Assembly: GCA_965226055.1 (NCBI GenBank)
Contig: CBDDCA010000006.1
Coordinates: forward strand, 258,251-322,250
Direction: 5' to 3'
Length of the DNA stretch: 64,000 nucleotides
From: Spirochaetia bacterium
GTDB taxonomy: Bacteria > Spirochaetota > Spirochaetia > WTKD01 > G963693115
Shown piece by piece: positions 13,601 through 52,016 of this stretch. The notes under the pieces were generated by a model, which was given only the letters and a program-made list of their open reading frames with translations, did no database searches and was not told the origin of the DNA. Position 1 is the stretch's first letter. Every line of letters begins with the position of its first letter. A program made the position numbers and the translations under genes.

Positions 13601-16600
13601 TAGGAGTTCCTGATATTGTGCCAGTGCTAGTATTAAAATCTAACCCTGTATTTACTGTTATATCTGGACTTATACTAAAACTTCCTGTTATATCAGGCGT
13701 TTTGGTAAAAGTTATTTCTTTATTTTTTGCAAGTGGAACATTTACATATGTATTTATACTACGATTACTTGCACTTATATTAAAATACCATGTAGGCAAC
13801 TTTGCTACTGCGGTATTCTTAAACATATCTGTTTTTGTCACACCACTTGCTACATTCCAGCTTTCAAGATCTTTTTCAAATGCATTTGCTCCACTGAGCA
13901 TACTACTCATATTGGTGACAGCATTTACATCCCATTCGGATATATCTCCATTGAAAGTAATATTATCCTTAAATAGATCACTCATATCTGTTATTTTACT
14001 TGTATCTATTATGTTGAGATTAGCTTCGTTTCCTTGTACATTTATCTCTGTAGTTATAGCTTGCTTTAATTCTGTTTTATTATTAGGAGTATGCTTATAC
14101 CTACGTATCTCTACCGATATTTTTATTGTCCTATCAGTATCAATATATTTATGTATTACTGTTCCATCTGTCTTTTTACTTGTAAACTGTATGGTATATT
14201 CAGTCTTTGAGATTGCTGTAAGAGGAGTACCCGATATTTTACCAGTGCTAGGATCAAAATCTAAACCTGTATTTTTTGCTATATCTGGACTAACGCTAAA
14301 ACTTCCTGTTATATTAGGTGTTTTGGTAAGGGTTATTTCTTTATCTGTTGCTAATGGTATGTTTTTATATGCAATTATCTTATTATCACTTGCACTTATG
14401 CTAAAATACCATGTAGGCAACTTTGCTACTGCGGTATTCTTAAATATATCTGTTTTTGTCACAGTCCCATCGCTTGCTACATTCCAATCTTCCAGATCTT
14501 GGTTAAATTTTGTCGCTCCCAAGAACATCTTGCCTATATCGGTAACGCTACTTATATTCCAGCTTGATATATCTTGATTAAACGCTGCCGCTGACGAAAA
14601 CATCTGATGCATATTCGTAACTTTTCCTACCTTCCAATTTGATATATCTTTATTAAAAATGGTTGCTCCCGAAAACATAGCTGTCATATTTGTAACTTTT
14701 CTTACATCCCAGCCCGACATATTGCTATTAAAATTTGCTGCTCCTAAAAACATTCGATTCATATCCGTAACTGCCCCTACATTCCACCCCGATATATCTT
14801 TATTGAAACTGGTTGCTCCCGAAAACATATTCCCCATATCATTCACATTTTGTACCTTCCAATTTGATATATCTTGATTAAAACTTGTCGCATTCCAAAA
14901 CATACCATTCATGTTAGTAACACTTTGTACCTTCCAGTTTGATATATCTTGATTAAAACTACCTGCATAATAAAACATACTGCTCATATCAATAACATTA
15001 CTTACATTCCAACCAGAAATATCCCCATTAAATGCAGCAGCTTGATTAAACATATGACTCATATCAGTAACATTACTTACATCCCACTCAGATATTTTAC
15101 CATTAAAAGTAGTATTACTATTAAATAATCCACTCATATCATCAATCTTACTAGTATCAATTATATTTAAGTCAGCAGTATTTCCTTGTAATCCTATCTC
15201 AGTATTTATATTGTTTATTAATTCTAATTTACCAGTAGGAGTATACTTATGCCCTATAGTAACTGTTATCGTTATTGTCCTATCAGTATAGGCATATATT
15301 GTTTTCCCATTCTTTTCACTGGTAAACTGTATGGTGTAAGGAGTTTTTGAAGCTACCTTTGTAGGAGTACCCGATATTGTCCCAGAGCTAGAATCAAAAC
15401 TCAAGCCTGTATTTGTTGTGATACTTGGACTTATACTAAAACTTCCTGCTATACTAGGTGTTTTGGTAACTTTTATTTCTTCACTTGCTCCTAATTTTAT
15501 ACGTGCTTGCCCTGTCAGAGCAGACTTATTTGCACTTATACTAAAATACCATGTAGGTAACTTTGCTACTGCGGTATTCTTAAACATATCTGTTTTTGTC
15601 ACAGTCCCATCGCTTGCCACCTTCCAGCTTTCAAGATCTTTGTCAAATGCACTTGCTCCTAAAAACATGCTACTCATATCAGCAACCTTGCTTACATTCC
15701 ATCCCGATACATTTTGATTGAAACTTGTTGCTCCTGAAAACATATTACTCATATCGGTAACGCTACTTACATCCCATCCCGATATATCTCCATTGAAATT
15801 AGCTTTATTCTCAAATATATTACTCATATCTGTTATATTACTTGTATTTATTATGTTTAAGTTAGCAGTATTTCCTTGTACTTCTATCTCCTTTTTTATG
15901 TTTTCCAATAACTCTGTTTTGTTGTTAGGAGTATAAAGATAAGTATTTATTGCTACTGATAGAGTGATGGATCTAGTATCGACATAAGTATATGTCGCTG
16001 GATTACCTGAGCTATCAGTAAAGCTACTGGTAAACTGTATGGTGTAAGAAGTTTGTGAAGCTGCCTCGGTAGGAGTACCCGATATTGTGCCAGTTCTAGT
16101 ATCAAAATCTAACCCTGTATTTGCTTTGATATCTGGACTTATACTGAAACTTCCTGCTATAAGGGGTGTCCTTGTCAGTATTATATCTGTTATTGGTACT
16201 TTTACTCCCTCATGTATACTATTGCTGCTTGCGCTTATACTAAAATACCATGTAGGTAATTTTGCTACTGCAGTATTCGTAAACATATTTGTTTTTGTCT
16301 TAAGGCTTGCTATATTCCAGTTTTCAATATCTCCATTAAATTTTATCGCCCCACTCAACATATTTTCCATATCAGTGACTTTACTTACATTCCACTCGGA
16401 TATATTTCCATTGAAAGTAGTGTTATCCTTAAATAGATCACTCATATCTGTTATGTTACTTGTATCTATTATGTTGAGATTAGCAGTATTTCCTTGTGCA
16501 TTTATCTCTGTAGTTATAGCTTGCTTTAATTCTGCTATATTATTGGGAGTATGCTTATATTTATGTATCTCTACTGATATTGTTATTGTTCTATCAGTAT

Positions 16601-19073
16601 AGGTATGTGTTGCTAAAGCACCTGTACTACCAGTAAAGCTACTGGTAAACTGTATGGTGTAAGAAGTTTGTGAAACTGCTTTGGTAGGAGTGCCTGATAT
16701 TGTCCCAGTGCTAGTATTAAAACTCAACCCTGTATTTGCTGTTATATCTGGACTAATACTAAAATTTCCTGCTATATCAGGCGTTTTGCTAAGGGTTATT
16801 TCTTCATTTTTTGCTAGCGGTATTCCTCTATATACATCTATACTAGCACTATTTGACTTTATGCTAAAATACCATGTAGGTAATTTTGCTACTGCGGTAT
16901 TCTTAAATATATCTGTTTTTGTCACAGCGATTGCTACATTCCAGCCTTCAAGATCTTGTGTAAACTTAGAAGCACCAGAAAACATGCTACTCATATTGGT
17001 AACCTTGCTTACATTCCATCCCGACACATTTTGATTGAAACTTGTTGCTCCTAAAAACATACTGCTCATATCGGCAACTTTACTTACATTCCATCCCGAT
17101 ACATTTTGATTGAAACTTGTTGCTCCTAAAAACATACTGCTCATATCGGTAACTTTACTTACATTCCATTTCGATATGTCTCCATTAAAACTTGTTGCTC
17201 CTGAAAACATACTGCTCATATCGGTAACTTTACTTACATTCCATTTCGATATATCTCCATTGAAAGTAGTGTTATCCTTAAATAGCCTACTCATATCTGT
17301 TATAAGACTCGTATTTATTATGTTTAGATTAGCAGTATTTCCTTGCAATCCTACCTCTGTTTTTATAGCTTCCAATAATTCTGCTTTATTTTTTGGCTTA
17401 TACTCTATAGTGAGCAATATTTCTATTGTCCTATCAGTATCAGTATAGGTATGTATTTCTGTCCTATCAGAGGAGGTACTTGTAAATGTTATAATATACT
17501 CAGTCTCTGAGGCTACCTTTGTAGGAGTACCTGATATTGTGCCAGTACTAGTATCAAAACTCAACCCTATACTCGTTATATCTGGCTTTATACCAAATTT
17601 TCCTGTTATATCAGGCGTTTTGCTAAGAGTTATTTTTTCATTATCTGCTAGTGATACCCCTTTATATACAGTGAGCTCATCAACATTAGCACTTATGCTA
17701 AAATACCATGTAGGCAATTTTGCTACTGCGGTATTTGTAAACATATCTTTTTTTGTCACAGTGCTTGCTACATTCCAGCCTTCAAGATCTTTATCAAATG
17801 CACTTGCTCCTGAAAACATACCATCCATATCTGTAATATTACTTACCTTCCACTTTGATATGTCTCCATTGAAACTTGTTGCTCCTGCAAACATATTACT
17901 CATATCGGTAACATTGCTTACATCCCACAATGATATATCTCTATTAAAGGTAGTGTCATCCTTAAATAGATCATGCATATCTTTTACAGCACTTGTATTT
18001 ATATAGTTAAAATTATCTACATCAGTATTTTTAATTGCTTCTATTAATTCGTTACGTGTTTTTACTATAGCAGTAAACACCGATACATATATAGAGAACT
18101 GGCTAGACTTTCCTAAGTAACTTCCATCCCCTGTAAAACGAATTGTATATTTTCTTCGTATACCATTTTCTTTATCCTTCAATAACCTTATTGCAGTGCC
18201 ATATATTTCTCCATTATTGTCCTTCATCTCCAATCCTGTATCTTCCGTAAGAGTTGTCGTTTTTCCATCAGTACTATTAAATTCAATACTCCATGTACCA
18301 GTAATTCCTGGAGGGCTTGTTGCAATATTGATTGGCATTAAAGGAACATTCAAGCTCGACTTGATTAACTGTTCATTATCATACCTATCTGTGATAGAGT
18401 TTCCATCACGCACAAGAGTAAATACATAATGCCAACTAGGAATACTTGTTGCAGGTACATTAGCTCCCTTAAATATATCTTGTATATTTACTGAATCTGC
18501 TACCTGCCATTTCTCTAAATCATACTGAAACACTGTTGCTTTATTAAACATGTTACTCATATCGGTAACCTTGCTCACATTCCAGCCTGATATATCTTGA
18601 TTAAAACTTGCTGCGGCTTCAAACATGTTACTCATATCGGTAACCTTGCTCACATTCCAGCCTGATATATTTTGATTAAAACTCGTTGCTCCCTTAAACA
18701 GATTACTCATATTAGTAACATTACTTACATTCCAGCCTGATATATTTCCATTAAAGGTAGTATTTCCTTCAAACATACTGCTCATATCAGTAATATTGCT
18801 TACATCCCAACTTGATATATCACCTGAAAAATTGGAAAATTCACCATCACCTTTGAATAAGCCGCTTATATCTTTTACTTTACTTGTATCTATAGTAGAG
18901 AGATCTGCTGCATTTCCGCGGGAGGCAATTTCTCGCTTAATGTTTTCAATAAGCGATTCTCTACTATCAGGAGAGTAAATAAAGTCTAAACTTAAAGATT
19001 TTTCTGGATCACAACCAGATACCAAAAAAGCGAAACATAAAAATAGCCAAAATATAAAAAATTGATACTTCAT
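10605..19073 (-). CDS. Giant modular surface lipoprotein (2822 aa) of reiterated DUF285-repeat and Ig-like (He_PIG-like) modules
   Basis: Signal peptide with lipobox LVSGC. About 8 modules of ~330 aa, each built from several DISxWNVSxVTxMSxMF repeats, then AVAKLPTWYFSI, then GLSFDTSTGTISGTPT. Confidence 0.85.
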   Translation of the reverse strand: MKYQFFIFWLFLCFAFLVSGCDPEKSLSLDFIYSPDSRESLIENIKREIASRGNAADLSTIDTSKVKDISGLFKGDGEFSNFSGDISSWDVSNITDMSSMFEGNTTFNGNISGWNVSNVTNMSNLFKGATSFNQNISGWNVSKVTDMSNMFEAAASFNQDISGWNVSKVTDMSNMFNKATVFQYDLEKWQVADSVNIQDIFKGANVPATSIPSWHYVFTLVRDGNSITDRYDNEQLIKSSLNVPLMPINIATSPPGITGTWSIEFNSTDGKTTTLTEDTGLEMKDNNGEIYGTAIRLLKDKENGIRRKYTIRFTGDGSYLGKSSQFSIYVSVFTAIVKTRNELIEAIKNTDVDNFNYINTSAVKDMHDLFKDDTTFNRDISLWDVSNVTDMSNMFAGATSFNGDISKWKVSNITDMDGMFSGASAFDKDLEGWNVASTVTKKDMFTNTAVAKLPTWYFSISANVDELTVYKGVSLADNEKITLSKTPDITGKFGIKPDITSIGLSFDTSTGTISGTPTKVASETEYIITFTSTSSDRTEIHTYTDTDRTIEILLTIEYKPKNKAELLEAIKTEVGLQGNTANLNIINTSLITDMSRLFKDNTTFNGDISKWNVSKVTDMSSMFSGATSFNGDISKWNVSKVTDMSSMFLGATSFNQNVSGWNVSKVADMSSMFLGATSFNQNVSGWNVSKVTNMSSMFSGASKFTQDLEGWNVAIAVTKTDIFKNTAVAKLPTWYFSIKSNSASIDVYRGIPLAKNEEITLSKTPDIAGNFSISPDITANTGLSFNTSTGTISGTPTKAVSQTSYTIQFTSSFTGSTGALATHTYTDRTITISVEIHKYKHTPNNIAELKQAITTEINAQGNTANLNIIDTSNITDMSDLFKDNTTFNGNISEWNVSKVTDMENMLSGAIKFNGDIENWNIASLKTKTNMFTNTAVAKLPTWYFSISASSNSIHEGVKVPITDIILTRTPLIAGSFSISPDIKANTGLDFDTRTGTISGTPTEAASQTSYTIQFTSSFTDSSGNPATYTYVDTRSITLSVAINTYLYTPNNKTELLENIKKEIEVQGNTANLNIINTSNITDMSNIFENKANFNGDISGWDVSSVTDMSNMFSGATSFNQNVSGWNVSKVADMSSMFLGASAFDKDLESWKVASDGTVTKTDMFKNTAVAKLPTWYFSISANKSALTGQARIKLGASEEIKVTKTPSIAGSFSISPSITTNTGLSFDSSSGTISGTPTKVASKTPYTIQFTSEKNGKTIYAYTDRTITITVTIGHKYTPTGKLELINNINTEIGLQGNTADLNIIDTSKIDDMSGLFNSNTTFNGKISEWDVSNVTDMSHMFNQAAAFNGDISGWNVSNVIDMSSMFYYAGSFNQDISNWKVQSVTNMNGMFWNATSFNQDISNWKVQNVNDMGNMFSGATSFNKDISGWNVGAVTDMNRMFLGAANFNSNMSGWDVRKVTNMTAMFSGATIFNKDISNWKVGKVTNMHQMFSSAAAFNQDISSWNISSVTDIGKMFLGATKFNQDLEDWNVASDGTVTKTDIFKNTAVAKLPTWYFSISASDNKIIAYKNIPLATDKEITLTKTPNITGSFSVSPDIAKNTGLDFDPSTGKISGTPLTAISKTEYTIQFTSKKTDGTVIHKYIDTDRTIKISVEIRRYKHTPNNKTELKQAITTEINVQGNEANLNIIDTSKITDMSDLFKDNITFNGDISEWDVNAVTNMSSMLSGANAFEKDLESWNVASGVTKTDMFKNTAVAKLPTWYFNISASNRSINTYVNVPLAKNKEITFTKTPDITGSFSISPDITVNTGLDFNTSTGTISGTPTKAASKTDYTIEFTSSFTDSKGNPATHKYTDRTIKISVTTSYKHTPSNKTELQKAVDDEIAAQGDTANLNIIDTSVITDMSNLFEDKANFNGDISKWNVSKVTNMSNMFLNANKFNGDISGWNVSAVTNMESLFAGAHAFNQDIKNWTVSKVINMRAMFLSAQSFNQDIKNWTVSKVTNMETMFNFASKFSANLENWNVKSSVIKTNMFESTVVKKLPTWYFSINANRTTITGYKDLSLSNTETITLTKTSNVTGSFSISPNITTNTGLNFDTNTGSISGTPTILASQTKYTIQFTSEKNGKTIHTYTDRTIEIHVTISQYKYTPSDKTELQKAVDDEINAQGNTANLNIIDTSAITDMSNIFSSKDHFNGNVSKWDVSKVTNMSSIFAGAQKFNGDISNWNVSSVTNMFFMFNNANAFNQDLESWNVDSGVTKTDMFLASAVKKLPTWYFSISANSTTISVYRDLSLLDSQKIILTKTPVITGSFSISPNITTNTGLNFDTSTGIISGTPTTVTSQTEYTIQFRSEEADKTLIHKYIDDRRTIKVLVTIKEYKHIPNNKAELQQAINTEITVQGNTPDLTMIDTSKIKDMSSLFSSEVNFNGNISRWNVSSVTNMSSMFFKASEFNQDITGWNVSKVTDMRSMFINASKFNQDITGWNVSKVTDMSNMFKGASVFNKELETWNVDKTVSKTNMFEHTAVVILPTWYFNISASRASIGGSVKAYVGVPLTKDKEVTLTKTPAIAGIFSISPDITADTGLSFDADTGKISGTPTKAASKTYTIEFTSKKSDGKAIHTYTDASRSKTISVTIEYKYTPQNKKKLEEAIEAEIKAQGFAPNLNMIDTSNITDMGGLFYDKQYFNGDVSLWNVSKVTDMSNMFNQTEFFNGDISKWNVGKVTNMNSMFYDAEAFNQDIGNWNVSNVANMRYMFYDADVFNQDIGNWNVSNVTDMSSMFADASVFNQNLSNWNVANSVIKTDMFKGTAVKNLPGWCLPAGNCR

Positions 19074-37179: not shown

Positions 37180-38484
37180 CTAAGGAATAATGTTACTTAC
37201 AAGATAGTCTCTATTATACATGATAACTCTACCCAACTTATACTCTCTCCATTTCACAAGAATAGGTTGAGGAACAATATTCTTTTCTTGCTCCAACTGT
37301 GTTACAGTGAACATCGTACTATCATATATAGTAGCTATTTCTAAACGCTCTTTGAGCATTGTTACTAAATTACCATCAACAGACCATAATTTTATTCTTG
37401 CATCCTTTCCTGCACTTGCAATACTATTGCTCTTTCCATTAAAAGCAACTGTCCATATACGATCATTATTATCCTTAATACTTCGTTCTAAAGTAGCATT
37501 TTTTACATTCCATATATTTATACTCTCATCAGCACTACTACTAATAATATACTTTGAATCAGCACTAAACCCAACAGCATATATATTTGAAGCATGTCCT
37601 TTTAGTACACGACTTGCTCGCAGTCCTTCTTTAGACGACTTTGCCTGTGCTAAGTCATCCAACGAGTATACTATTATCGTACAATCATCACTAGCACTTG
37701 CAAGATATTTTCCATCTGCACTAAACGCCAACGCATTGACATCTCCGTAATGTCTTCTAAAGCTCTGTAAAGCAGTTATGTTTCTGTCTTGCTTTGCCAT
37801 TTCTGTATTAAAAGGAACATTCCAAAATCGTACAATATTATCTGTACCACCACTTGCAAGATATGTTCCGTCAGAACTATATGCTATAACATGTATCTCC
37901 TGTTGTGTCTGTAGCTCATCTATAAGCTGTGCATTCTCTACATCCCATATACGAATACTTCCATCTTTTCCCGCACTTGCAAGAGTATTTTCACTAGGAT
38001 GAAATGCTATAGTATACCCCTCGTTCTGTGAGATAGTATGATTTTGTGACTTATCCTGAAATTGAGCTTGAATTTGAGTAAGGATATTCCCTTTATTTGT
38101 TAGATCCCAAATAGTAATAGTACCATCAACACTCACACTTGCTACCAACGTTCCACTAGGACTATATAGTACTTGAGAAATAGCAGAGCTATGTCCTTCT
38201 AAACTACGAATAATCTGATAACTGTTTAGGTCCCATAGTTTGACTGTATTATCTTTTGATCCACTCACAAGAAAATTACCACTAGGAGAAAATGCAATGC
38301 TAACAACATCATCACTATGAATGGGCTGTGGCTCTAACCTTTCTAAGCCTACTTGTTGCATAAAATCAAGGGCTGACCCCTTCGCTACTTCCTGCTCTTC
38401 CTTATATGATGTACAGCTTGTTGCTACCAAGAGAACATAAAAAAAAGAGATTATAAATATACACTGTAATAATTGCTGTTTCAT
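37180..38484 (-). CDS. WD40-repeat lipoprotein
   Basis: Lipobox LVATSC, then seven or more WD-like repeats (e.g. GSKDNTVKLWD, SVDGTITIWD). Confidence 0.75.
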   Translation of the reverse strand: MKQQLLQCIFIISFFYVLLVATSCTSYKEEQEVAKGSALDFMQQVGLERLEPQPIHSDDVVSIAFSPSGNFLVSGSKDNTVKLWDLNSYQIIRSLEGHSSAISQVLYSPSGTLVASVSVDGTITIWDLTNKGNILTQIQAQFQDKSQNHTISQNEGYTIAFHPSENTLASAGKDGSIRIWDVENAQLIDELQTQQEIHVIAYSSDGTYLASGGTDNIVRFWNVPFNTEMAKQDRNITALQSFRRHYGDVNALAFSADGKYLASASDDCTIIVYSLDDLAQAKSSKEGLRASRVLKGHASNIYAVGFSADSKYIISSSADESINIWNVKNATLERSIKDNNDRIWTVAFNGKSNSIASAGKDARIKLWSVDGNLVTMLKERLEIATIYDSTMFTVTQLEQEKNIVPQPILVKWREYKLGRVIMYNRDYLVSNIIP

Positions 38485-38668: not shown

Positions 38669-41116
38669 TCAAATTCCCAGTGCATTCAACCTCAGTCTCT
38701 CTGTTGTAGTTTGTACAGTCTTTGCTTGATACCCCTTAAGCGGAATAAGATTTTGGTGAATAGCATCCAATATAGTATGTTTAGTAGGAAAATACTCCAA
38801 TTCCAAATCAGCAGGAGGCGTAATAAGATTTTTTGCACCAACAACAAAAGGAGGAGCATCTAAATAATCAAATACCACTGTACTAAGATTACTTGCTACA
38901 GTATGCATAAATGAACCTCTTTCCACTGCATCACTTACTAATAGTACCTTTCCTGTTTTTTTTACCGATTCTATAAGAATATCATATTGTAATGGATTTA
39001 TAAAACGAAGATCAATAACATCTGATTCTATACCATGTTTTGTCGAGAGATACTGTGATGCTTCCAATGCTGGATACAGAGTTGGCCCTACTGTAATAAT
39101 ACTAAGATGCTTTCCGTTTCTCCGCTGTACAGGAACACCCAATTCTACTGTATAATGCTCCTGTGGTACTCCCTGTGAATAAAACAGCTCTCCTTTACTA
39201 TACAATTTTTGACTTTCAAAAAATATCACAGGGTTACTTGCACTCAATGCTGTAGCAAGCATCCCTTTTGCATCATAGGGAGTGACAGGATACATGACTT
39301 GTAACCCAGGTATGTGTGCCACAAGAGATGTCCAATCTTGTGAATGCTGTGGCCCATACTTAGTTCCCACTGATACACGCAGCACTAATGGCATTTGTAA
39401 TGCTAACGCACTCATGCCTTGCCACTTTGACATCTGATTAAATACTTCATCTCCAGCCCTCCCAAGAAAATCACAATACATAAGCTCCACTAATGCCCGT
39501 CCTCCACTGAGAGCATACCCTATAGCTGTACCAACAATAGCACTTTCTGCAATAGGAGGGTTAAACAATCTATGATATGGCAACGACTCAGTTAAGCCAC
39601 GATAACACGCAAACGCTCCTCCCCAATCTCTATTTTCTTCTCCATATAATATCAACTTTGAATCAGTATATGCACTATGTAGCACAGCTTCAAATATCCC
39701 ATCACGCAATGTATACACCTGAGATTCTGGATATGGTTTTTTTTGTTCATCAAAAGCATAGCGTTTTTTACTTAATAGCTGTTTTACACGAGAATTTTCC
39801 TCTTGTGGAATACGTACTTCTGGTATATCATTTGTAGTGTATGCTTTTTGAGAAAACATTCTATTCTCAATAGCAGCAACAGTAACAAAAGGATTTTCCT
39901 CTGTACGAATAACAAGCTCAAGTGTCTTCTTTATTTTTATCATAACATCTTCATGAAAAGAAGAACATGCTTCTTCACTTACAATAGCATGAGATAGCAA
40001 ATAATTAGCATACTCTATAATTGGATCTTTTTCCTTAAAGCTATCAATTTCCTCTTTTGTTCTATATGAAGAAACATCAGAAGAAGAATGACCTGAAATT
40101 CTATATGTAATCGTATCAAGCAAAACAGGCCCACGCCCTTGTAATAGAATTTCTTTTTTTCTCCGCGTAGCATCAGCCACCGCTAATGGATTAAAGCCAT
40201 CGACTCTTTCTGCATACATAGCATTTGCATTCACCCCCGATGCAATACGAGCCATAACCCCTATCCCCATAGTTTCCCCAACAGTTTGCCCTCCCATACC
40301 ATAAAAATTATTAAAGATATTCATCAGATATGGCGGAGCTCCCTCTTTATCCCAAAGACTATAGTACTGTTCCATTGAAGAAAACATAAGAGCTTCCCAT
40401 ACTGCTCCACATGCCATAGCAGCATCCCCTATATTTGCAATTACTATGCCCGGTGTATTATGTATTTTTTTATACAAAGCAGCCCCCAATGCAATAGTAG
40501 CACTGCCTCCCACTATAGCATTATTTGGCATACTTCCCAACGGAAAAAAGAATGCATGCATTGATCCTCCGATCCCTGCATTAAATCCATTTTCTCTTGC
40601 AAAAATTTCCGAAAGCAACCCATACAATACACAATATTCCGCAACATCATACATATTTTTTGCGAGCTTATGCTTTTCAACAATATGTAGCAGAGTACCT
40701 TCTCTATAATTCAAGAACAATGTATATAAATCATTTTCATTTAAGCCTCGAATAGCCGAAAAACATTTTGCTATAATCTCACCATGACTACGATGAGAAC
40801 CAAAAATAATATCATTTTTTTCTAAAGCAAGACATTGTCCTACAGCAGCTGATTCCTGTCCAATAGATAAATGTACTGCCCCTCTATGAGTGTAGCGTAT
40901 GTTCTGATATTCTCCCTTTGTTTTTATAGCACTAAGCATTTGCTCAAATTCTCGAATTATGAGCATATCATAATATACTCTTCTTAACCTTTCTCTCCCG
41001 TACCGTTCCAGTTCTCTATAAAAATGAGGTTGATACGCATTTATTGGAATAGACGCAGACTCTAACACATCTGCTTTGCGTATTTCATCTTTTTGTAACA
41101 ATATACTCTTTGGCAT
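38669..41116 (-). CDS. Fused E1 alpha/beta component of a TPP-dependent 2-oxoacid (pyruvate/acetoin-type) dehydrogenase
   Basis: The N-terminal half has the E1 alpha TPP motif (IGDAAMACGAVWEAL...NNFYGMGG). The C-terminal half has transketolase-like pyrimidine-binding and C-terminal domains. Confidence 0.8.
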   Translation of the reverse strand: MPKSILLQKDEIRKADVLESASIPINAYQPHFYRELERYGRERLRRVYYDMLIIREFEQMLSAIKTKGEYQNIRYTHRGAVHLSIGQESAAVGQCLALEKNDIIFGSHRSHGEIIAKCFSAIRGLNENDLYTLFLNYREGTLLHIVEKHKLAKNMYDVAEYCVLYGLLSEIFARENGFNAGIGGSMHAFFFPLGSMPNNAIVGGSATIALGAALYKKIHNTPGIVIANIGDAAMACGAVWEALMFSSMEQYYSLWDKEGAPPYLMNIFNNFYGMGGQTVGETMGIGVMARIASGVNANAMYAERVDGFNPLAVADATRRKKEILLQGRGPVLLDTITYRISGHSSSDVSSYRTKEEIDSFKEKDPIIEYANYLLSHAIVSEEACSSFHEDVMIKIKKTLELVIRTEENPFVTVAAIENRMFSQKAYTTNDIPEVRIPQEENSRVKQLLSKKRYAFDEQKKPYPESQVYTLRDGIFEAVLHSAYTDSKLILYGEENRDWGGAFACYRGLTESLPYHRLFNPPIAESAIVGTAIGYALSGGRALVELMYCDFLGRAGDEVFNQMSKWQGMSALALQMPLVLRVSVGTKYGPQHSQDWTSLVAHIPGLQVMYPVTPYDAKGMLATALSASNPVIFFESQKLYSKGELFYSQGVPQEHYTVELGVPVQRRNGKHLSIITVGPTLYPALEASQYLSTKHGIESDVIDLRFINPLQYDILIESVKKTGKVLLVSDAVERGSFMHTVASNLSTVVFDYLDAPPFVVGAKNLITPPADLELEYFPTKHTILDAIHQNLIPLKGYQAKTVQTTTERLRLNALGI

Positions 41117-41222
41117 ACTTATTTATAGTGTATCATGTATTTTTATTGAAAAAAACTACTACTTGCACTCAATCTTCAATATTGTTAGGATACATACATT
41201 TTCACTTTCTTTTTGGCATCTC

Positions 41223-42032
41223 TCATACTACAGATGAAGGCGAAAAGTGAGCTATGGCTAACGATACTTTGTGTAAAAATCCAGCTGCTTGTACTTCATT
41301 ATATGCTCTACTATCAAAAGAAAATGATAATGTCACATACGGCTTAAAAGATACTCCCCCATCAGCTGTATATCTTGCCTGTGGCACAATAGGACTTATT
41401 CCTAATATGCCCGTCTGTGGAATAGTGAGAACAGGAGTATAGTGTTCTATCCCATATGATCCAAAATTACTTATAGTAAATGTAGCTCCTTTAAGGGACT
41501 GTGCATCTATACTATTGTTTCTACACTTATGTATAAGAATTTTTGCATTCTGTGATATTTCGTTAAGAGACTGTGTATGTGCATTTCGTAACACTGGCAT
41601 TAGTACCCCAGAAGGACTATTTACCATAAAAGAAAGATGTACCGAACTATGCTCAACAATTTGGTTTCCATCTTCTCGCAAAGAATTTATAAAAGTACAC
41701 TCTGCAAGCACACGAGAACAAATATACAAAAACATATCATTTAGAGTAATAGTTTTATTCTGTGTTTTATATTGCTTATGGGATCGCTGAACAGATCTTG
41801 CATCTGCTGACATTGTTATTGTGCGCTGCTCAATGCTCCTTACCTGTTCTTGTTGCAATAAAAACGAACGAATAGTAGCTTCTTCTATCCTTAACAAAGA
41901 GTTCTGTTCAATATACAAGTGAAACAATGGGTAAAGGGAAACAAACTGTTCAAAACTCCACCCTCTTTGTGTAAGATAGCGTTTTGCTCGGGGACTTAGA
42001 TGCACAGAAGGAAGAGTAGCTATTTCTGTCAT
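41223..42032 (-). CDS. E2-like acyltransferase core (PSBD plus catalytic domain) with no lipoyl domain and the catalytic His replaced
   Basis: N-terminal peripheral-subunit-binding motif (LSPRAKRYLTQRGWSFEQ). A 2-oxoacid dehydrogenase acyltransferase fold ends in LSFSFDSRAYNEV where the DHRxxDG motif is expected. Confidence 0.7.
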   Translation of the reverse strand: MTEIATLPSVHLSPRAKRYLTQRGWSFEQFVSLYPLFHLYIEQNSLLRIEEATIRSFLLQQEQVRSIEQRTITMSADARSVQRSHKQYKTQNKTITLNDMFLYICSRVLAECTFINSLREDGNQIVEHSSVHLSFMVNSPSGVLMPVLRNAHTQSLNEISQNAKILIHKCRNNSIDAQSLKGATFTISNFGSYGIEHYTPVLTIPQTGILGISPIVPQARYTADGGVSFKPYVTLSFSFDSRAYNEVQAAGFLHKVSLAIAHFSPSSVV

Positions 42033-42087: not shown

Positions 42088-43044
42088 TCATATTGGTATC
42101 TTAATCCATGCTTGAGGCACATCTGTATCATTGATACTGTATCCTTCTTTTTCTTTAGAACTAATATACGGTAAAATTACTATCTTATCTTTATTTGTAT
42201 TAAGCCATGCTCCCCACCAACTAAATGTACTACTTGCAATTATTTGATGCTTACATTTACTTAGCAAATATAAATCTTCATGTCCTTTTGAAAGTGAATT
42301 TCCGTCCATAATAGTAAAGGATATATGAGAGAAACGATGAGCTTGCCTTTTAACCCATGCAGGATCATCACTAAAGAAAAAATAATGTGGATGCTGTAAT
42401 TTTTTCTGCATAATATGTATTGCAGCAAGATAATAATCTATACCTACCAAATTGCCTATAGTAACAACATCTGTCCTACGAATATGAACTCCCACTGATT
42501 GCTTTTTACTCAATATGATGTTTTCGTATTTTAAAGAATAGCTGCCAAGTGGATTACGAAGGGTACATTGCTGAAGAATATCACTTCGATACTCTTCAAA
42601 AAATGTATGACATTGAAACCAACCATCAAGGTACACATTATTCCCCAGACGAAATAAAGATTGTACATACTCATCTGGATACCCATATTTAACATGATGA
42701 TTATTAAACGTTTTCAAACAATATATCTTTGTAAGATACCGTTTAAGAAATAATGCTACTTTCATAGGAACATTCATTTTCCTTATAAGAGATAATAAAG
42801 CATGCACTCTCCTATAATATTTGTAAGAAGGTATTAGTAAGCAACCATATTGAGCAATAATATTATATTCATCAAGAAAAAGAATACGAGCTTTTATACT
42901 GTTACCAGCAGAATCTTTCACAAAATAATCATAATCTAAAAAATCAAGAACAACATAGGTATTATTTTTTCTTGCTAAGGCATAGGCTGTAGCGTATTGA
43001 AATAACTGATTACCAAGTCTCCCTTGTACTTTAACAGCTATCAT
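42088..43044 (-). CDS. Glycosyltransferase family 11 (alpha-1,2-fucosyltransferase-like)
   Basis: The N-terminal MIAVKVQGRLGNQLFQYATAYALA is the GT11 signature. Its start overlaps the 3' end of the upstream gene (43031-43044). Confidence 0.8.
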   Translation of the reverse strand: MIAVKVQGRLGNQLFQYATAYALARKNNTYVVLDFLDYDYFVKDSAGNSIKARILFLDEYNIIAQYGCLLIPSYKYYRRVHALLSLIRKMNVPMKVALFLKRYLTKIYCLKTFNNHHVKYGYPDEYVQSLFRLGNNVYLDGWFQCHTFFEEYRSDILQQCTLRNPLGSYSLKYENIILSKKQSVGVHIRRTDVVTIGNLVGIDYYLAAIHIMQKKLQHPHYFFFSDDPAWVKRQAHRFSHISFTIMDGNSLSKGHEDLYLLSKCKHQIIASSTFSWWGAWLNTNKDKIVILPYISSKEKEGYSINDTDVPQAWIKIPI

Positions 43045-43990
43045 ATCTTATACCATATTTATCCCTTCCATTGAGGACGTACCCCCCCCCCCCCAATTTC
43101 CACAGCATGCCTTTTACAATATTCTTAAAAGATTGATATAACGAAGGTTTCATTTTTTTCTGTAATAATTTCTCTGGTAAAAAATATTGATGAAAATAAA
43201 ACCATACATCAAAAGGATGAGGAGGATCAATCATATGAAAATATTCGGGATATCCAATGGCAAGACGAGCATATATATTTTGTTCTACTCCAATAAATGT
43301 ACCATGAGAAGACATGTTATCCTTCAATGTATAGTAAAGATTATGTATTTTTAAGAGAATAGAGCTATGAATAAGAAATAAGCCTCCAACATGTTCTCTT
43401 GTTCGCAAGGTCAATGTAGCTATATTTTCTTTCTCCTTCGCATATTGTTGAACATCAAACCTTTGTTCTGTTTTTGTCATTACTACTTTATGGGGAGACA
43501 TAGTAGTTACTTTTTCTACATCAGGCCACTGTCTAATTTCTCTTGGTTTCAAATCGTAATCATACCTACGCTTTCTTCCTCTAAACGCTCCAATATCCAT
43601 CCACATAAACCACTGCGACCGAAACACATTTAACTCATACGCTTCTTTTACAAAATGTAATTTTTCGTTCCATATAATATACAGCTCAGGATCATGTATA
43701 TCTTTTTCTTTATTTTTTGCATGATGTTCTTGATACAATGCATAATGAGCATACTCATGAAGCTGATGAAATTCTTTTATAATAACAACAGTATTTTCTT
43801 GATACTTTTTCCTTAATCGTAAAAAATAGGGAGCATGCTCTTTATCAGTAAATATAACGAGCGGGAGTTTCATATTACAGAGAAAATTTTTTATCCACTG
43901 TTTATACATATCATCACTATGTTTTGATTTCTTAAGACGATAATATGCAGTCACTATTGTGAGACTATTCTTAACAATACTTTCCTCCAA
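43031..43990 (-). CDS. Putative polysaccharide/LPS biosynthesis protein (HtrL/YibB-like, tentative), tandem copy 1, with a G13 tract near its 3' end
   Basis: Reads IVTAYYRLKKSKH...WFMWMDIGAFRG. The poly-G at 43082-43094 (coding strand) encodes GGGG and sets the frame of the 16-aa tail. Confidence 0.55.
   Translation of the reverse strand: MEESIVKNSLTIVTAYYRLKKSKHSDDMYKQWIKNFLCNMKLPLVIFTDKEHAPYFLRLRKKYQENTVVIIKEFHQLHEYAHYALYQEHHAKNKEKDIHDPELYIIWNEKLHFVKEAYELNVFRSQWFMWMDIGAFRGRKRRYDYDLKPREIRQWPDVEKVTTMSPHKVVMTKTEQRFDVQQYAKEKENIATLTLRTREHVGGLFLIHSSILLKIHNLYYTLKDNMSSHGTFIGVEQNIYARLAIGYPEYFHMIDPPHPFDVWFYFHQYFLPEKLLQKKMKPSLYQSFKNIVKGMLWKLGGGGYVLNGRDKYGIRYDSC
43082..43094 (-). repeat. Homopolymeric G13 (C13 on the + strand) inside the CDS
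   Basis: Counted directly. Its paralogous position in copy 2 holds 14 residues. Confidence 0.9.
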
Positions 43991-44114: not shown

Positions 44115-45119
44115 TCAAAAATAAGACAAGATGCCATTAGTATACAACAAAAATTCTATTTTATAAGCAAACTCTCTTTCCTTCCTTATTATTATTCCAT
44201 TGGGGTGTACCCCCCCCCCCCCCAATTTCCACAGCATGCCTTTTACAATATTCTTAAAAGATTGATACAACGAAGGCTTTATTTTTTTCTGTAATAATTT
44301 CTCTGGTAAAAAATATTGATGAAAATAAAACCATACATCAAAAGCATGAGAAGGATCAATCATATGAAAATATTCAGGATATCCAATGGCAAGACGAGCA
44401 TATATATTTTGGTCTACTCCAATAAATGTACCATGAGAAAACATATTATCCTTCAATGTATAATAAAGATTATGTATTTTTAAGAGAATAGAGCTATGAA
44501 TAAGAAATAAGCCTCCAACATGTTCTCTTGTTCGCAAGGTCAATGTAGCTATATTTTCTTTCTCTTTCGCATATTGTTGAACATCAAACTCTTCCTCTGT
44601 TTTTATCATTACTGCTTTATGGGGAGACATAGTAGTTACTTTTTCTACATCAGGCCACTGTCTAATTTCTCTTGGTTTCAAATCGTAATCATACCTACGC
44701 TTTCTTCCTCTAAACGCTCCAATATCCATCCACATAAACCACTGCGACCGAAACACATTTAACTCATACGCTTCTTTTACAAAATGTAATTTTTCGTTCC
44801 ATATAATATACAGCTCAGGATCATGTATATCTTTTTGTATATCTTTTGCATGATGTTCTTGATACAATGCATAATGAGCATACTCATGAAGCTGATGAAA
44901 TTCTTTTATAATAACAACAGTATTTTCTTGATACTTTTTCCTTAATCGTAAAAAATAGGGAGCATGCTCTTTATCAGTAAATATAACGAGCGGGAGTTTC
45001 ATATTACAGAGAAAATTTTTTATCCACTGTTTATACATATCATCACTATGTTTTGATTTCTTAAGACGATAATATGCAGTCACTATTGTGAGACTATTCT
45101 TAGCAATACTTTCCTCCAA
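44115..45119 (-). CDS. Putative polysaccharide/LPS biosynthesis protein (HtrL/YibB-like, tentative), tandem copy 2, with a G14 tract
   Basis: More than 95% identical to copy 1 up to the poly-G. The 14-G tract gives a different 31-aa C-terminal tail. Confidence 0.55.
   Translation of the reverse strand: MEESIAKNSLTIVTAYYRLKKSKHSDDMYKQWIKNFLCNMKLPLVIFTDKEHAPYFLRLRKKYQENTVVIIKEFHQLHEYAHYALYQEHHAKDIQKDIHDPELYIIWNEKLHFVKEAYELNVFRSQWFMWMDIGAFRGRKRRYDYDLKPREIRQWPDVEKVTTMSPHKAVMIKTEEEFDVQQYAKEKENIATLTLRTREHVGGLFLIHSSILLKIHNLYYTLKDNMFSHGTFIGVDQNIYARLAIGYPEYFHMIDPSHAFDVWFYFHQYFLPEKLLQKKIKPSLYQSFKNIVKGMLWKLGGGGVHPNGIIIRKEREFAYKIEFLLYTNGILSYF
44210..44223 (-). repeat. Homopolymeric G14 (C14 on the + strand) inside the CDS
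   Basis: Counted directly. Confidence 0.9.
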
Positions 45120-49835: not shown

Positions 49836-50699
49836 TTAATGAGAGATACTATTAACTTTTAAACTATCTTTGAAAAATAATATTTCTTTTCCATTCTTAG
49901 TTTTATTAGCAAAATGTTTTAGAATAAAAGGTTTTCTATTTTTTACCCAAGAAAAATTTTCATTTATTTCCTCTTTATCATCATAAGAAACAATCCAAGA
50001 AAATTTTTTAATATTTTTAATTTTTTCACTTAAGATTTTATGCTGATCTTGTTTATAAAAGTTTAAGTATAAATCTTTTCCTTTATTAAAATAGGGAGGA
50101 TCAAAATAAAATATTGTCTGCTTATTTTTTTCTTCTTTTTGAATTTTATCAATTAGTTCTAAAACATCTAGATTATGCAGAGTTATTTGTTCTTTATACC
50201 TTGCTATTAATTTGATTTTTTTTATTATTGTATCTTTATTGAATCTACAATTTAATTTATATTTTCCTTTTTGTTTTAAGCCTCCAATAGGACCTCCTTT
50301 TAAAATTCCTGAAAAATTTGCCCTATTTAAAAATAATGTAGAAAAGCCTACCTCTAATGATGAAAAATTTTGTATCTCTTTTTGTATTTCTTTTTGTTTT
50401 TTCCAATTTTCTATACTTATTTCTGTATCATGTATGAGTGTGCATAACTCATCAGTTTTATTCAAAACACAATACCAAAAAGAATAAATAGATTTGTCTA
50501 AATCATTTAAAGTTATTTTTTTAAATTTATTTTCTAATAAAAGATATAAACCAACTGAAGCTCCTCCACAAAAAGGCTCTACATAATGATCATTTATTTT
50601 ATTATCAGTGCAAATTTGAGAAATAAATTTTGAAAGCCTATTCTTTCCTCCTGGATATCTTAATGGTGAATAAAATTTATTTTTAATCATTTTTACCAT
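49836..50699 (-). CDS. Dam-family (D12 class, alpha) N6-adenine DNA methyltransferase
   Basis: LRYPGGK, EPFCGGASV and DPPYF motifs. Very AT-rich coding sequence. Overlaps the upstream gene by 17 bp. Confidence 0.8.
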   Translation of the reverse strand: MVKMIKNKFYSPLRYPGGKNRLSKFISQICTDNKINDHYVEPFCGGASVGLYLLLENKFKKITLNDLDKSIYSFWYCVLNKTDELCTLIHDTEISIENWKKQKEIQKEIQNFSSLEVGFSTLFLNRANFSGILKGGPIGGLKQKGKYKLNCRFNKDTIIKKIKLIARYKEQITLHNLDVLELIDKIQKEEKNKQTIFYFDPPYFNKGKDLYLNFYKQDQHKILSEKIKNIKKFSWIVSYDDKEEINENFSWVKNRKPFILKHFANKTKNGKEILFFKDSLKVNSISH

Positions 50700-51969
50700 A
50701 GTAATGCTTTAATATTTTCCCTACAATTTTAGAACACTGTAAAATATTTGTTTTATCATATTCAATATTTGCGTGAGCATATTTTGCTAATAACGATTCA
50801 AAATCAGAATTTTTTTTCAAAATGTCTGTGCCAATACTATTGAAATTTAATTCTTTTTGATCTAACATATCAGATGCTTTAATTTCTTTCATAAATTCTC
50901 CAAAAACAGCATCATCACTTGCTCGTTTATCTCCCTCATTTTCAAAATATTTTCTTCCAGCAGCCTCCATTATTAGTCTCAAAGACATACCTATAATAGG
51001 TAAGATATTTTTATCTCTTTTAAATGTTTCATAAATTTCATCTAGTATACTATACAAATCATTAACTTTTCCTTTTTTTAGTTCTAATTTTTCTCCAAAT
51101 AAAGTATCTACGATTGCTTTATCTCTAGGAGTTTTTCTTAGTTTTTTTTGTAAATTATTATCTTTTATCACATTCTTGCTACTCTGTTCTGTAAAATTTC
51201 TAATATTTAATTCTTTATCATCAATTAAAGGTTTTATTGATCCTCTATTTTTTCTTGTACTTATTTGTTTACTTTGAATCAATTGTATTAATTTTTCAAA
51301 AATTAATTGTAATTTTTCATCCTTTTCATATGAAGGATAAACACTCTCTAATTTATTATTTGAATCAAAATAAAAACCTAATTTGTAAAAATTATCTACA
51401 GTCAAAATTTCTGTTTTAATAAAATTTTGATCTAGTGCTTTATAATTCTCACTTATTAAATGTGTTGCTTCTTCAATTTTTAAAAATAAACTTTTTTCCT
51501 TTTTCAAATGATAATGATCAAAATAATCTTGTTGTAAAGCAGACCAAGTATTATTTCTTATATTATCTGCTTGTATAATTGTTAATGCTGTTTTCTCATT
51601 ACATAAAACACAAGAAATTTCTTTTAAGTTTACTAAATTTTTTGGTGGACTAGATGGAAATAATTTTTTTTCTATTACAACAGACCATTGTGGATTTTGT
51701 AAATATTTTAATACTACTATTCTTTTATTACCATCATAAACAATATGTTTTTTATTTTTAAAAACAACAATTGGTAATTTATTAAGATGATAGAAATCTC
51801 CCATTTCTTCAATTAGCTTTGGAATATTCCATTTATCTCTATCATCCTTTATGGCTTTTTTTATTATTTCTAAATCTCCAATATCTTCTCCAATTGGATC
51901 TCTTGGATTTTCAGTCCATAAATGTAATTCCGATATTTTTATCTCTTTGATTTTTTGATCATCACCCAT
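50683..51969 (-). CDS. ParB/Srx-superfamily (DGQHR/DUF262-like) nuclease-domain protein with an uncharacterised ~300-aa C-terminal region
   Basis: N-terminal ISELHLWTENPRDP (ParB NPR box) and VYDGNKRIVVL (a DG..R motif). AT-rich and translationally coupled to the methyltransferase. Confidence 0.55.
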   Translation of the reverse strand: MGDDQKIKEIKISELHLWTENPRDPIGEDIGDLEIIKKAIKDDRDKWNIPKLIEEMGDFYHLNKLPIVVFKNKKHIVYDGNKRIVVLKYLQNPQWSVVIEKKLFPSSPPKNLVNLKEISCVLCNEKTALTIIQADNIRNNTWSALQQDYFDHYHLKKEKSLFLKIEEATHLISENYKALDQNFIKTEILTVDNFYKLGFYFDSNNKLESVYPSYEKDEKLQLIFEKLIQLIQSKQISTRKNRGSIKPLIDDKELNIRNFTEQSSKNVIKDNNLQKKLRKTPRDKAIVDTLFGEKLELKKGKVNDLYSILDEIYETFKRDKNILPIIGMSLRLIMEAAGRKYFENEGDKRASDDAVFGEFMKEIKASDMLDQKELNFNSIGTDILKKNSDFESLLAKYAHANIEYDKTNILQCSKIVGKILKHYYGKND

Positions 51970-52016
51970 ATATTTAATTCCTCCACCTCTCTTGCTTAAT
52001 CTACTTAATAAGTATA

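Follow-up and report, generated by a model that had tools for sequence, protein, structure and literature searches.

An E2-like protein without lipoyl domain or catalytic histidine beside a fused E1 in a Spirochaetia genome: a candidate non-catalytic relic of a decayed 2-oxoacid dehydrogenase operon

What is an E2-like protein that has neither a lipoyl domain nor the catalytic histidine, and in what relation does it stand to the E1 component encoded beside it? The question is raised by a pair of genes in a stretch of 64,000 nucleotides (hereafter the window) on contig CBDDCA010000006.1 of the Spirochaetia bacterium assembly GCA_965226055.1. On the minus strand, an open reading frame (ORF) of 810 nt, identified as E2-like by its match to Pfam PF00198, encodes a protein of 269 amino acids (41223-42032); it is followed, after a spacer of 106 bp that contains neither an E3 gene nor a terminator-like site (41117-41222, minus strand), by a gene for a fused E1 alpha/beta protein of 815 amino acids (38669-41116, minus strand), recognized from Pfam, NCBIfam and PDB matches. 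An earlier note on this DNA, made from its letters and a list of ORFs, had placed the E2-like gene downstream of the E1 gene; on the minus strand it in fact lies upstream, on the 5′ side. The pair is the remainder of a decayed E2-(E3)-E1 operon, and in our judgement it is somewhat better than an even bet that it now consists of an orphaned E1 and a non-catalytic E2 relic retained next to it.

The E2-like protein has a single Pfam match, to PF00198 (2-oxoacid_dh, E = 5.5e-43, residues 62-262), and its best sequence match in the PDB is the catalytic domain of the Azotobacter vinelandii E2p (1eaa, E = 1.2e-24). The AlphaFold2 (AF2) model has a predicted local distance difference test score (pLDDT) above 90 over the catalytic domain (approximately residues 66-265), and the top Foldseek matches of this model are solved E2 cores with template-modelling (TM) scores of about 0.8. 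Together, these results delimit a complete E2 catalytic (inner core) domain of the chloramphenicol acetyltransferase (CAT)-like fold at residues 53-265 (41238-41876, minus strand), so the fold that had been read from the sequence is borne out. Among the NCBIfam models, only those for E2 and E1 of the pyruvate dehydrogenase (PDH) type matched the two window proteins, all of them below threshold.

Within this otherwise complete domain, the active-site motif is degenerate. In the phmmer alignment, LSLSYDHRVINGAAAARF of the A. vinelandii E2p stands opposite LSFSFDSRAYNEVQAAGF of the window protein without an indel, and His610 corresponds to Ser241. The canonical DH(R/Q)xxDG is thus replaced by D240-S-R-A-Y-N-E246 (41295-41315, minus strand; the AGT codon of Ser241 is at 41310-41312), in which the histidine has become serine, the following aspartate asparagine, and the glycine glutamate. 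The earlier note had proposed just these substitutions and had named a histidine shifted by an indel as the observation that would overturn them; the 1eaa alignment contains no such indel. The three replaced residues are each present in all 65 orthologous E2s of the comparison, and the nearest full-length E2s (from loci L003, L085 and L086) read FDHRAYDG where the window protein reads FDSRAYNE. The combination of serine, asparagine and glutamate was found only in the window protein and in one near-identical relative, and even the motif arginine varies between these two strains (DSR versus DSS). Two other residues of the active site are kept, namely the oxyanion serine (Ser188, in FTISN, versus Ser558 in FTISS of A. 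vinelandii and FT(V/I)(T/S)N in the orthologues) and the equivalent of A. vinelandii Asn614, which is Asn245.

Loss of the histidine is rare among the nearest homologues. When 1.84 billion cluster representatives were scanned exhaustively with HMMER, 144 of the 148 nearest proved to keep it. One of the four that do not is a frameshift artefact, and the other three are full-length proteins with asparagine, arginine or threonine at this position. These three E2 homologues (P0287, P0362 and P0363) come from other organisms and read DNRAVDS, NRQTVED and DTRALDS; on this evidence, E2 paralogues lacking the histidine may turn up now and then among bacteria.

The absence of a lipoyl domain, also claimed previously, holds at every level at which it was approached. 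Biotin_lipoyl (PF00364) has no match in the E2-like protein, and in the alignment with the 65 orthologous E2s the lipoyl domain falls in a gap. Nor is there space for such a domain upstream in the same frame: the stop codon of the preceding GT11 glycosyltransferase gene lies just 55 nt before the start codon. Family-specific hidden Markov models (HMMs) of the lipoyl domain and of E3 found no match in the six reading frames of the window, which agrees with the statement of the earlier note that no E3 gene is adjacent, and a phmmer search for the lipoate-protein ligase LplA over all frames of the window was likewise negative. The corresponding 21 kb of syntenic sequence in the sister genome (introduced below) yielded none of the three either. 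What may be left of the lipoyl domain is its very beginning. Codons 1-8 (MTEIATLP; 42009-42032, minus strand) are aligned by MAFFT with MAEEVILP (L003), MANEIILP and MAKEVILP, the lipoyl-domain starts of the nearest full-length E2s, and probably represent a retained start of this kind, with the similarity being weak and only eight residues long; after residue 8, the rest of the lipoyl domain and the linker are gapped.

The peripheral-subunit-binding domain (PSBD) that had been assigned to the protein survives in part. Pfam E3_binding (PF02817) has no match in the E2-like protein, even at E ≤ 10. A family HMM of 45 positions, for which 58 orthologues supplied the PSBD sequences, matches over positions 2-20 only, i.e., over the first helix SPRAKRYLTQRG, with E values of about 0.003-0.015 in a small search space. 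The AF2 model places a helix at residues 14-23 with a pLDDT near 60; over residues 29-64, the score drops below 50. The PSBD HMM, the alignment and the AF2 model are consistent with a PSBD remnant that comprises the first helix alone (SPRAKRYLTQRG..FEQF; residues 9-33; 41934-42008, minus strand), while the full domain is not there. After this helix, a second gap of approximately 100 residues follows, and from residue 53 onwards the core aligns without gaps. We also considered LLRIEEATIRSFL as the second PSBD helix (GRIxxxDVxxFL), a placement favoured by an alignment of four sequences taken by itself. It was dropped because the alignment of 67 sequences sets IRSFLLQQEQVRS without a gap on helix H1 of the catalytic domain (IRKVIAERMxxSL in the orthologues), with identical lengths; any assignment of residues 34-52 is tentative.

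The core itself has drifted. It breaks 18 of 49 near-invariant positions of the catalytic domain, compared with a median of one and a maximum of six in the other E2s, and its distance to outgroups is 1.27 versus 0.97-1.06 for the sister E2s. The C-terminal hydrophobic ‘knob’, which reads fdlllA in the orthologues, is FSPSSVV in the window protein.

Where such a protein comes from becomes apparent when its relatives and their gene neighbourhoods are compared, which we did for 80 genome loci and six further loci recovered via metagenome proteins. A search of 5.8 billion protein clusters returned one relative of more than 90% identity, P0121 (96%), and the next relatives are full-length E2s at about 38-40% identity; the exhaustive HMMER scan agrees with this result. 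P0121 is encoded on OZ244590.1, the circular 2.36-Mb chromosome of a metagenome-assembled genome (MAG) labelled ‘Spirochaetia bacterium’ (the sister genome, locus L001), where the locus is fully syntenic with the window. The E2 form of 269 amino acids is confined to this lineage (L001 and a second entry, L051, are one place in one genome). In 61 loci, a full-length E2 of 393-582 amino acids with lipoyl domain, PSBD and catalytic domain is encoded directly upstream of the fused E1, and in 32 of these 61 an E3 gene of about 1.35 kb stands between the two. The canonical E2 of this operon (e.g., L003 5180-6613 and L085 3150-4580) thus occupies the same position as the window gene, and the two share, beyond the 38-40% identity of their catalytic domains, the subclade signatures FDxRAY, QAA and SPRAKxYL..QF. 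The window protein differs from it in lacking the lipoyl domain, half of the PSBD region, the linkers and the motif histidine, aspartate and glycine, and its gene lacks the adjoining E3 gene. This comparison of gene order and sequence establishes that the pair arose by decay of a DeoR-E2-(E3)-fused-E1 operon.

The intact operon deserves attention of its own. Its typical order (e.g., L004 4398-15541 and L085 1-10906) is DeoR regulator, E2, (E3), fused E1 alpha/beta, a protein of 447 amino acids, a short-chain dehydrogenase/reductase (SDR), an FGGY kinase and a zinc-dependent alcohol dehydrogenase, and in L004 the start of the 447-aa gene overlaps the E1 stop codon. The DeoR regulator is found in 41 loci, the SDR, which resembles sorbitol-6-phosphate or lactaldehyde dehydrogenases, in 25, the 447-aa protein in 23 and the zinc-dependent alcohol dehydrogenase in 18; FGGY kinases, RhaA, FucI and a class II aldolase recur nearby. 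The 447-aa protein has no match in Pfam, NCBIfam or the PDB. Judged by its gene content, this operon is predicted to encode a complete, uncharacterised complex of the 2-oxoacid dehydrogenase type within carbohydrate, often 6-deoxyhexose, catabolism. Our search of the literature returned nothing specific on the function of the fused-E1 operon, on its link to a rhamnose regulon or on a bacterial E2 lacking both lipoyl domain and histidine. The operon occurs in Spirochaetota, Chloroflexota, Ignavibacteria, Lentisphaerae/Kiritimatiellia and Clostridia, and it is common in Spirochaetales MAGs. The view that such a system would be unexpected in a treponeme is thus not supported, and the nearest genome is labelled no more precisely than as a Spirochaetia bacterium. 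One further locus had been considered as an intermediate stage of decay. In L086 (3099-4569, a Logan assembly), the E2 gene is split, but a frameshift accounts for this: the gene has its full length, the break falls after the lipoyl domain and before the PSBD, and the PSBD helix goes on in another frame. This candidate was dropped; the frameshift reflects either a fault of the assembly or a pseudogene at an early stage.

Is the E2-like gene, then, simply a pseudogene on its way out? Between the window and L001, it differs by 21 synonymous and 14 non-synonymous changes, corresponding to a ratio of non-synonymous to synonymous substitution rates (dN/dS) of 0.19 (binomial p = 2e-6), and selection is also detected for the catalytic domain alone (p = 1.3e-5). 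The value is indistinguishable from those of the E1 gene (0.18) and of the neighbouring genes (0.05-0.23) in the same comparison, and the ORF is intact in both genomes. By these measures of selection, the gene is not to be regarded as a pseudogene in the window lineage.

A different outcome is seen in a more distant sister lineage, L002. Its E1 is 81% identical to the window E1 and lies in the same context of GT11, intervening sequence, E1 and WD40 gene, but no E2 gene is called there. A tblastn search for an E2 remnant in L002 at a threshold of 1e-5 found none, whereas relaxed tblastn and blastn searches of the 470-bp spacer between GT11 and E1 recovered stop-ridden E2 fragments. One corresponds to the E2 start (MAEMIF..., 88% identity over 26 nt) and another to the C-terminal part (SFTFDSRAYHD, interrupted by stops, 91% over 33 nt). 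The replacement of histidine by serine predates the split between the window and L002 lineages, because the L002 pseudogene still reads FDSRAY. In the meantime, E1 has been the best conserved gene of the neighbourhood (81% versus 55-71% amino acid identity for the others), with a synonymous divergence (dS) of 0.66 and a dN/dS of 0.16 between window and L002. The E1 can thus persist without an E2: it is under strong purifying selection in a lineage in which the E2 gene is wrecked, and its function is clearly, to judge from these substitution patterns, independent of a cis-encoded E2 or E3.

The E1 is, as the earlier note had it, a fusion of alpha and beta parts. One chain carries the Pfam domains E1_dh, Transket_pyr and Transketolase_C, its PDB sequence matches are E1 alpha and beta chains, and the alpha part extends over approximately residues 1-440 and the beta part over approximately 455-815. 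Fused E1s of this family are chains of about 815-820 amino acids with thousands of relatives at 52-64% identity, hundreds of them 52-63% identical to the window E1 over the full length, and they are found in Spirochaetales, Chloroflexota, Ignavibacteria, Lentisphaerae/Kiritimatiellia, Clostridia and others. The motifs GSHRSHGE, GDA..NNFYGMG (for thiamine pyrophosphate, TPP), YRISGHS, PIAES and QHSQDW are intact. The window E1 nevertheless breaks 24 of 277 near-invariant family positions, e.g., H301Y, P80A, P345S (beside the GHS loop) and W764L, and across window, L001 and L002 the number is 24-28 versus a family median of two; its distance to outgroups shows no overall acceleration. These substitutions suggest altered constraints from a partner or a substrate. 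As to what that substrate may be, the E1 comes closest, in partial NCBIfam matches that fall far short of the cut-offs, to the PDH models for E1 beta and E1 alpha, and acetoin-family NCBIfam models have no match in either window protein. The proposal of a TPP enzyme working without lipoate therefore stands in so far as L002 has an E1 without a lipoyl partner in cis, and lacks support in its acetoin-type part.

Put together, these observations give the following picture. In the ancestor of a small Spirochaetia clade, the E3 gene, the regulator and the sugar genes were dropped from the locus. Two in-frame deletions reduced the E2, one removing the lipoyl domain with its linker and the other the second half of the PSBD region with its linker, and the motif changed from DHRAYDG to DSRAYNE. 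The active-site histidine is the source of most of the rate acceleration by E2. As a result of these deletions and substitutions, the protein is left without swinging arm and histidine and with a third of its invariant core positions drifted, and its lipoate-dependent acyltransferase activity would have been lost. Purifying selection may be keeping the relic as an E3BP-like subunit without catalytic activity, probably a trimer of core domains that still binds the product of the E1 gene 106 bp downstream. It would be helpful rather than indispensable, because the sister lineage L002 has lost it. The E1 would act without cis-encoded E2 and E3, either as a stand-alone TPP-dependent decarboxylase or carboligase or with partners encoded elsewhere.

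Several points weigh against this reading. The two-helix fold of a PSBD cannot form from the half that is left, which is itself predicted with low confidence, and a large 24-mer or 60-mer core is doubtful because the C-terminal knob reads FSPSSVV. The fate of L002 shows that E1 has no need of the E2-like protein. The estimate of selection on the E2-like gene comes from one pair of genomes that are only 4% apart. Loss of the histidine need not abolish transacylation, if the Escherichia coli E2o is a guide (PMC5986005), and the genome of approximately 2.4 Mb, of which the searches covered the 64-kb window, could encode a further E2, an E3 or a lipoyl-carrying protein at another place. The protein may therefore retain some catalytic function together with the products of other loci.

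Taken further, this last thought leads to an alternative, to which we assign little probability, in which the E2-like protein is a slow but working acyltransferase of the catalytic domain only, with the lipoyl carrier and E3 encoded elsewhere, so that the pair would belong to a split, lipoate-dependent dehydrogenase. In E. coli E2o, substitutions of His375 retain 0.5-60% of the activity, with efficiency reduced 2- to 178-fold, and the catalytic domain on its own is active if a lipoyl domain is provided in trans (PMC5986005); because of the former result, a complete lack of acyl transfer is not provable from sequence. Natural split systems exist, in L087 and L088, and the conservation of Ser188 and Asn245, the purifying selection on the gene and the retained histidines of the GHS and QHSQ motifs of E1 would all fit. 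Yet the lipoyl-less E2 of the L087 type keeps DHRVIDG, whereas the window protein has changed the histidine, the aspartate, the glycine and 15 other near-invariant positions, the window yielded no lipoyl protein, E3 or LplA, and the sister lineage discarded its E2 gene and kept E1. An opposite explanation is that the E2-like gene is functionless, its loss being not yet visible as a disruption, and that only E1 matters. The locus has indeed shed its E3, regulator and accessory genes, the protein has suffered two large deletions and lost 18 of the 49 invariant positions, the motif arginine is no longer constant between strains, and L002 could be seen as the end of the same trajectory. This too we regard as improbable: a dN/dS like that of E1 and the neighbours, at p = 2e-6, and an 810-nt ORF intact in both genomes are not what a functionless gene would be expected to show, and the deletions are in frame and leave a catalytic domain that is complete and, according to the structure prediction, confidently folded.

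The remaining alternative, which we hold to be quite unlikely, takes the altered E1 as its starting point and supposes that the orphan fused E1 has entered the service of the adjoining glycan genes, with the dead E2 relic acting as its structural subunit, and has gained a TPP function in which lipoate, E3 and catalysis by E2 play no part; for example, a surface polysaccharide could have one of its sugars extended by a C2 unit taken from pyruvate. There is precedent for E1-type proteins of this kind. E1 alpha/beta-like proteins add two-carbon branches to deoxysugars, and Plm8/Plm9 and the avilamycin proteins AviB1/AviB2 are E1-type TPP proteins of branched-sugar biosynthesis that work without E2 and E3 and are encoded beside glycosylation genes (PMC4802897). 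The order GT11, (E2 relic), E1, WD40 is kept in window, L001 and L002, with extra sugar genes in L002; a terminator-like site was detected neither between GT11 and the E2-like gene nor between the latter and E1; and 24-28 changed invariant positions in an E1 under strong purifying selection would fit a changed function. On the other hand, the comparison with the branched-sugar proteins was made at the family level. Those are two-subunit proteins from actinomycete antibiotic clusters rich in nucleoside diphosphate (NDP)-deoxysugar genes, whereas the window E1 is fused, of catabolic descent and without adjacent deoxysugar genes: the glycan cluster of the window amounts to no more than a GT11 gene and a couple of HtrL/YibB-like genes, with neither an NDP-sugar 4,6-dehydratase gene nor any other for deoxysugars. 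Moreover, 184 bp separate the WD40 and E1 genes, and the adjacency may be an accident that followed the collapse of the operon. The remark of the earlier note that the genes sit beside glycosyltransferases is thus correct, as a statement of adjacency, for three genomes; any functional link would be hypothetical. If this alternative were true, a new TPP function would explain the selection on E1 after the loss of E2 and E3, its two dozen changed residues and the conserved order of GT11, E2 relic and E1.

Returning to a non-catalytic E2 relic beside an orphaned E1 as the preferred reading, a concrete parallel is the eukaryotic E3BP (protein X), a paralogue of E2 that serves as a non-catalytic core subunit (PMC9681731). 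Human E3BP (PDB 6h60) has an E2-like inner domain in which, as in the window protein, histidine is replaced by serine and glycine by an acidic residue: SSDSRVVDD (with DSRVVDD as the motif) in E3BP versus SCDHRVVDG in E2p, and DSRAYNE in the window. The resemblance has its limits. E3BP keeps its lipoyl domain and a complete E3-binding PSBD and assembles together with the catalytic E2p, whereas the window protein has lost half of its PSBD and has neither lipoyl domain nor E3 nearby. By sequence comparison, the E3BP-like relic of the window is of independent bacterial origin. The suggestion of the earlier note of a non-catalytic, E3BP-like scaffold is accordingly supported in its first two terms, by the motif, the 18 altered positions of 49 and the human parallel, while the scaffold role itself is putative.

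Lipoyl-less E2s of a second kind also invite comparison. P0108 (in L087 and L088) and P0093 are, like the window protein, about 260 amino acids long, match PF00198 only and are encoded near E1 genes in sugar-related clusters. Unlike it, they have an intact DHRVIDG, and a lipoate-protein ligase, E3 and a free lipoyl protein are encoded alongside them. In L087 (1-12795) and L088, the split system lies in a sugar ABC/LacI cluster and comprises E1 alpha, E1 beta, a free lipoyl protein of 79 amino acids, a lipoyl-less E2 of 264 amino acids, E3 and LplA; the cluster also contains an unknown protein of 466 amino acids, a split transketolase and an FGGY kinase. A kinship between this 466-aa protein and the 447-aa protein of the fused-E1 operon was ruled out, as comparison revealed no relationship. 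The acetoin system (AcoA, AcoB, AcoC and AcoL) consists of E1 alpha/beta, E2 and E3, cleaves a C-C bond beside a carbonyl group and has a lipoyl domain in AcoC. The window pair differs from it in having no acetoin NCBIfam match and no lipoyl domain.

The surroundings of the pair contain several further features. In each of the three clade genomes, the orphan E1 gene is directly followed by a gene for a WD40 beta-propeller protein with seven repeats, a signal peptide and a lipobox-like cysteine (window 37180-38484, minus strand; L001 13457-14761; L002 10699-11982). In L002, the locus additionally has an epimerase/GDP-mannose-dehydratase-type gene, a cytidylyltransferase-like gene and more glycosyltransferases. 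The two HtrL/YibB-like genes of the window (43031-43990 and 44115-45119, minus strand) are tandem paralogues with 95% identity over 308 amino acids that differ only C-terminally; since L001 carries just one such gene, their duplication is recent. At 49836-51969 (minus strand), a gene for a D12-class adenine DNA methyltransferase is followed by an ORF of 428 amino acids without a Pfam match; both lie in a stretch (50001-52000) with a GC content of only 23%, which may be an acquired restriction-modification island. An IS30-like transposase (HTH_38 and rve integrase core) is encoded at 54892-55857 on the plus strand. The window also encodes three large repeat proteins, one of 2822 amino acids with 18 DUF285 stretches and He_PIG immunoglobulin-like domains (10605-19073, minus strand), one of 1571 amino acids with fn3 and DUF285 (56191-60906, plus strand) and one of 750 amino acids with fn3 (1791-4043, plus strand), and both plus-strand genes overlap blocks with an AT skew of approximately 0.4. 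In L001, an ORF of 782 amino acids with a weak match to the Cas12f1-like TNB (TnpB-type) family occupies positions 1-1766, with some 8 kb between it and the syntenic locus downstream. An Rfam scan of the window gave no match, and a promoter scan, which returned fewer sites than in shuffled sequences, was uninformative.

The case is restricted to a few uncultured genomes and mostly explained by gene decay, and its general importance is modest. Within these bounds, the locus captures, as it occurs in nature, a stage in the dismantling of a 2-oxoacid dehydrogenase complex, with E3 and the swinging arm going first, the E2 core lingering as a pseudoenzyme and E1 being the last to remain. The replacement of histidine by serine and of glycine by an acidic residue, known from the eukaryotic E3BP, has arisen independently in a bacterium, and the protein may serve as a compact model for non-catalytic roles of the E2 core. 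The pair also flags an E1 that probably has a role outside the classical complex, and it points to a widespread, uncharacterised and sugar-linked operon of DeoR, E2, E3 and fused E1.

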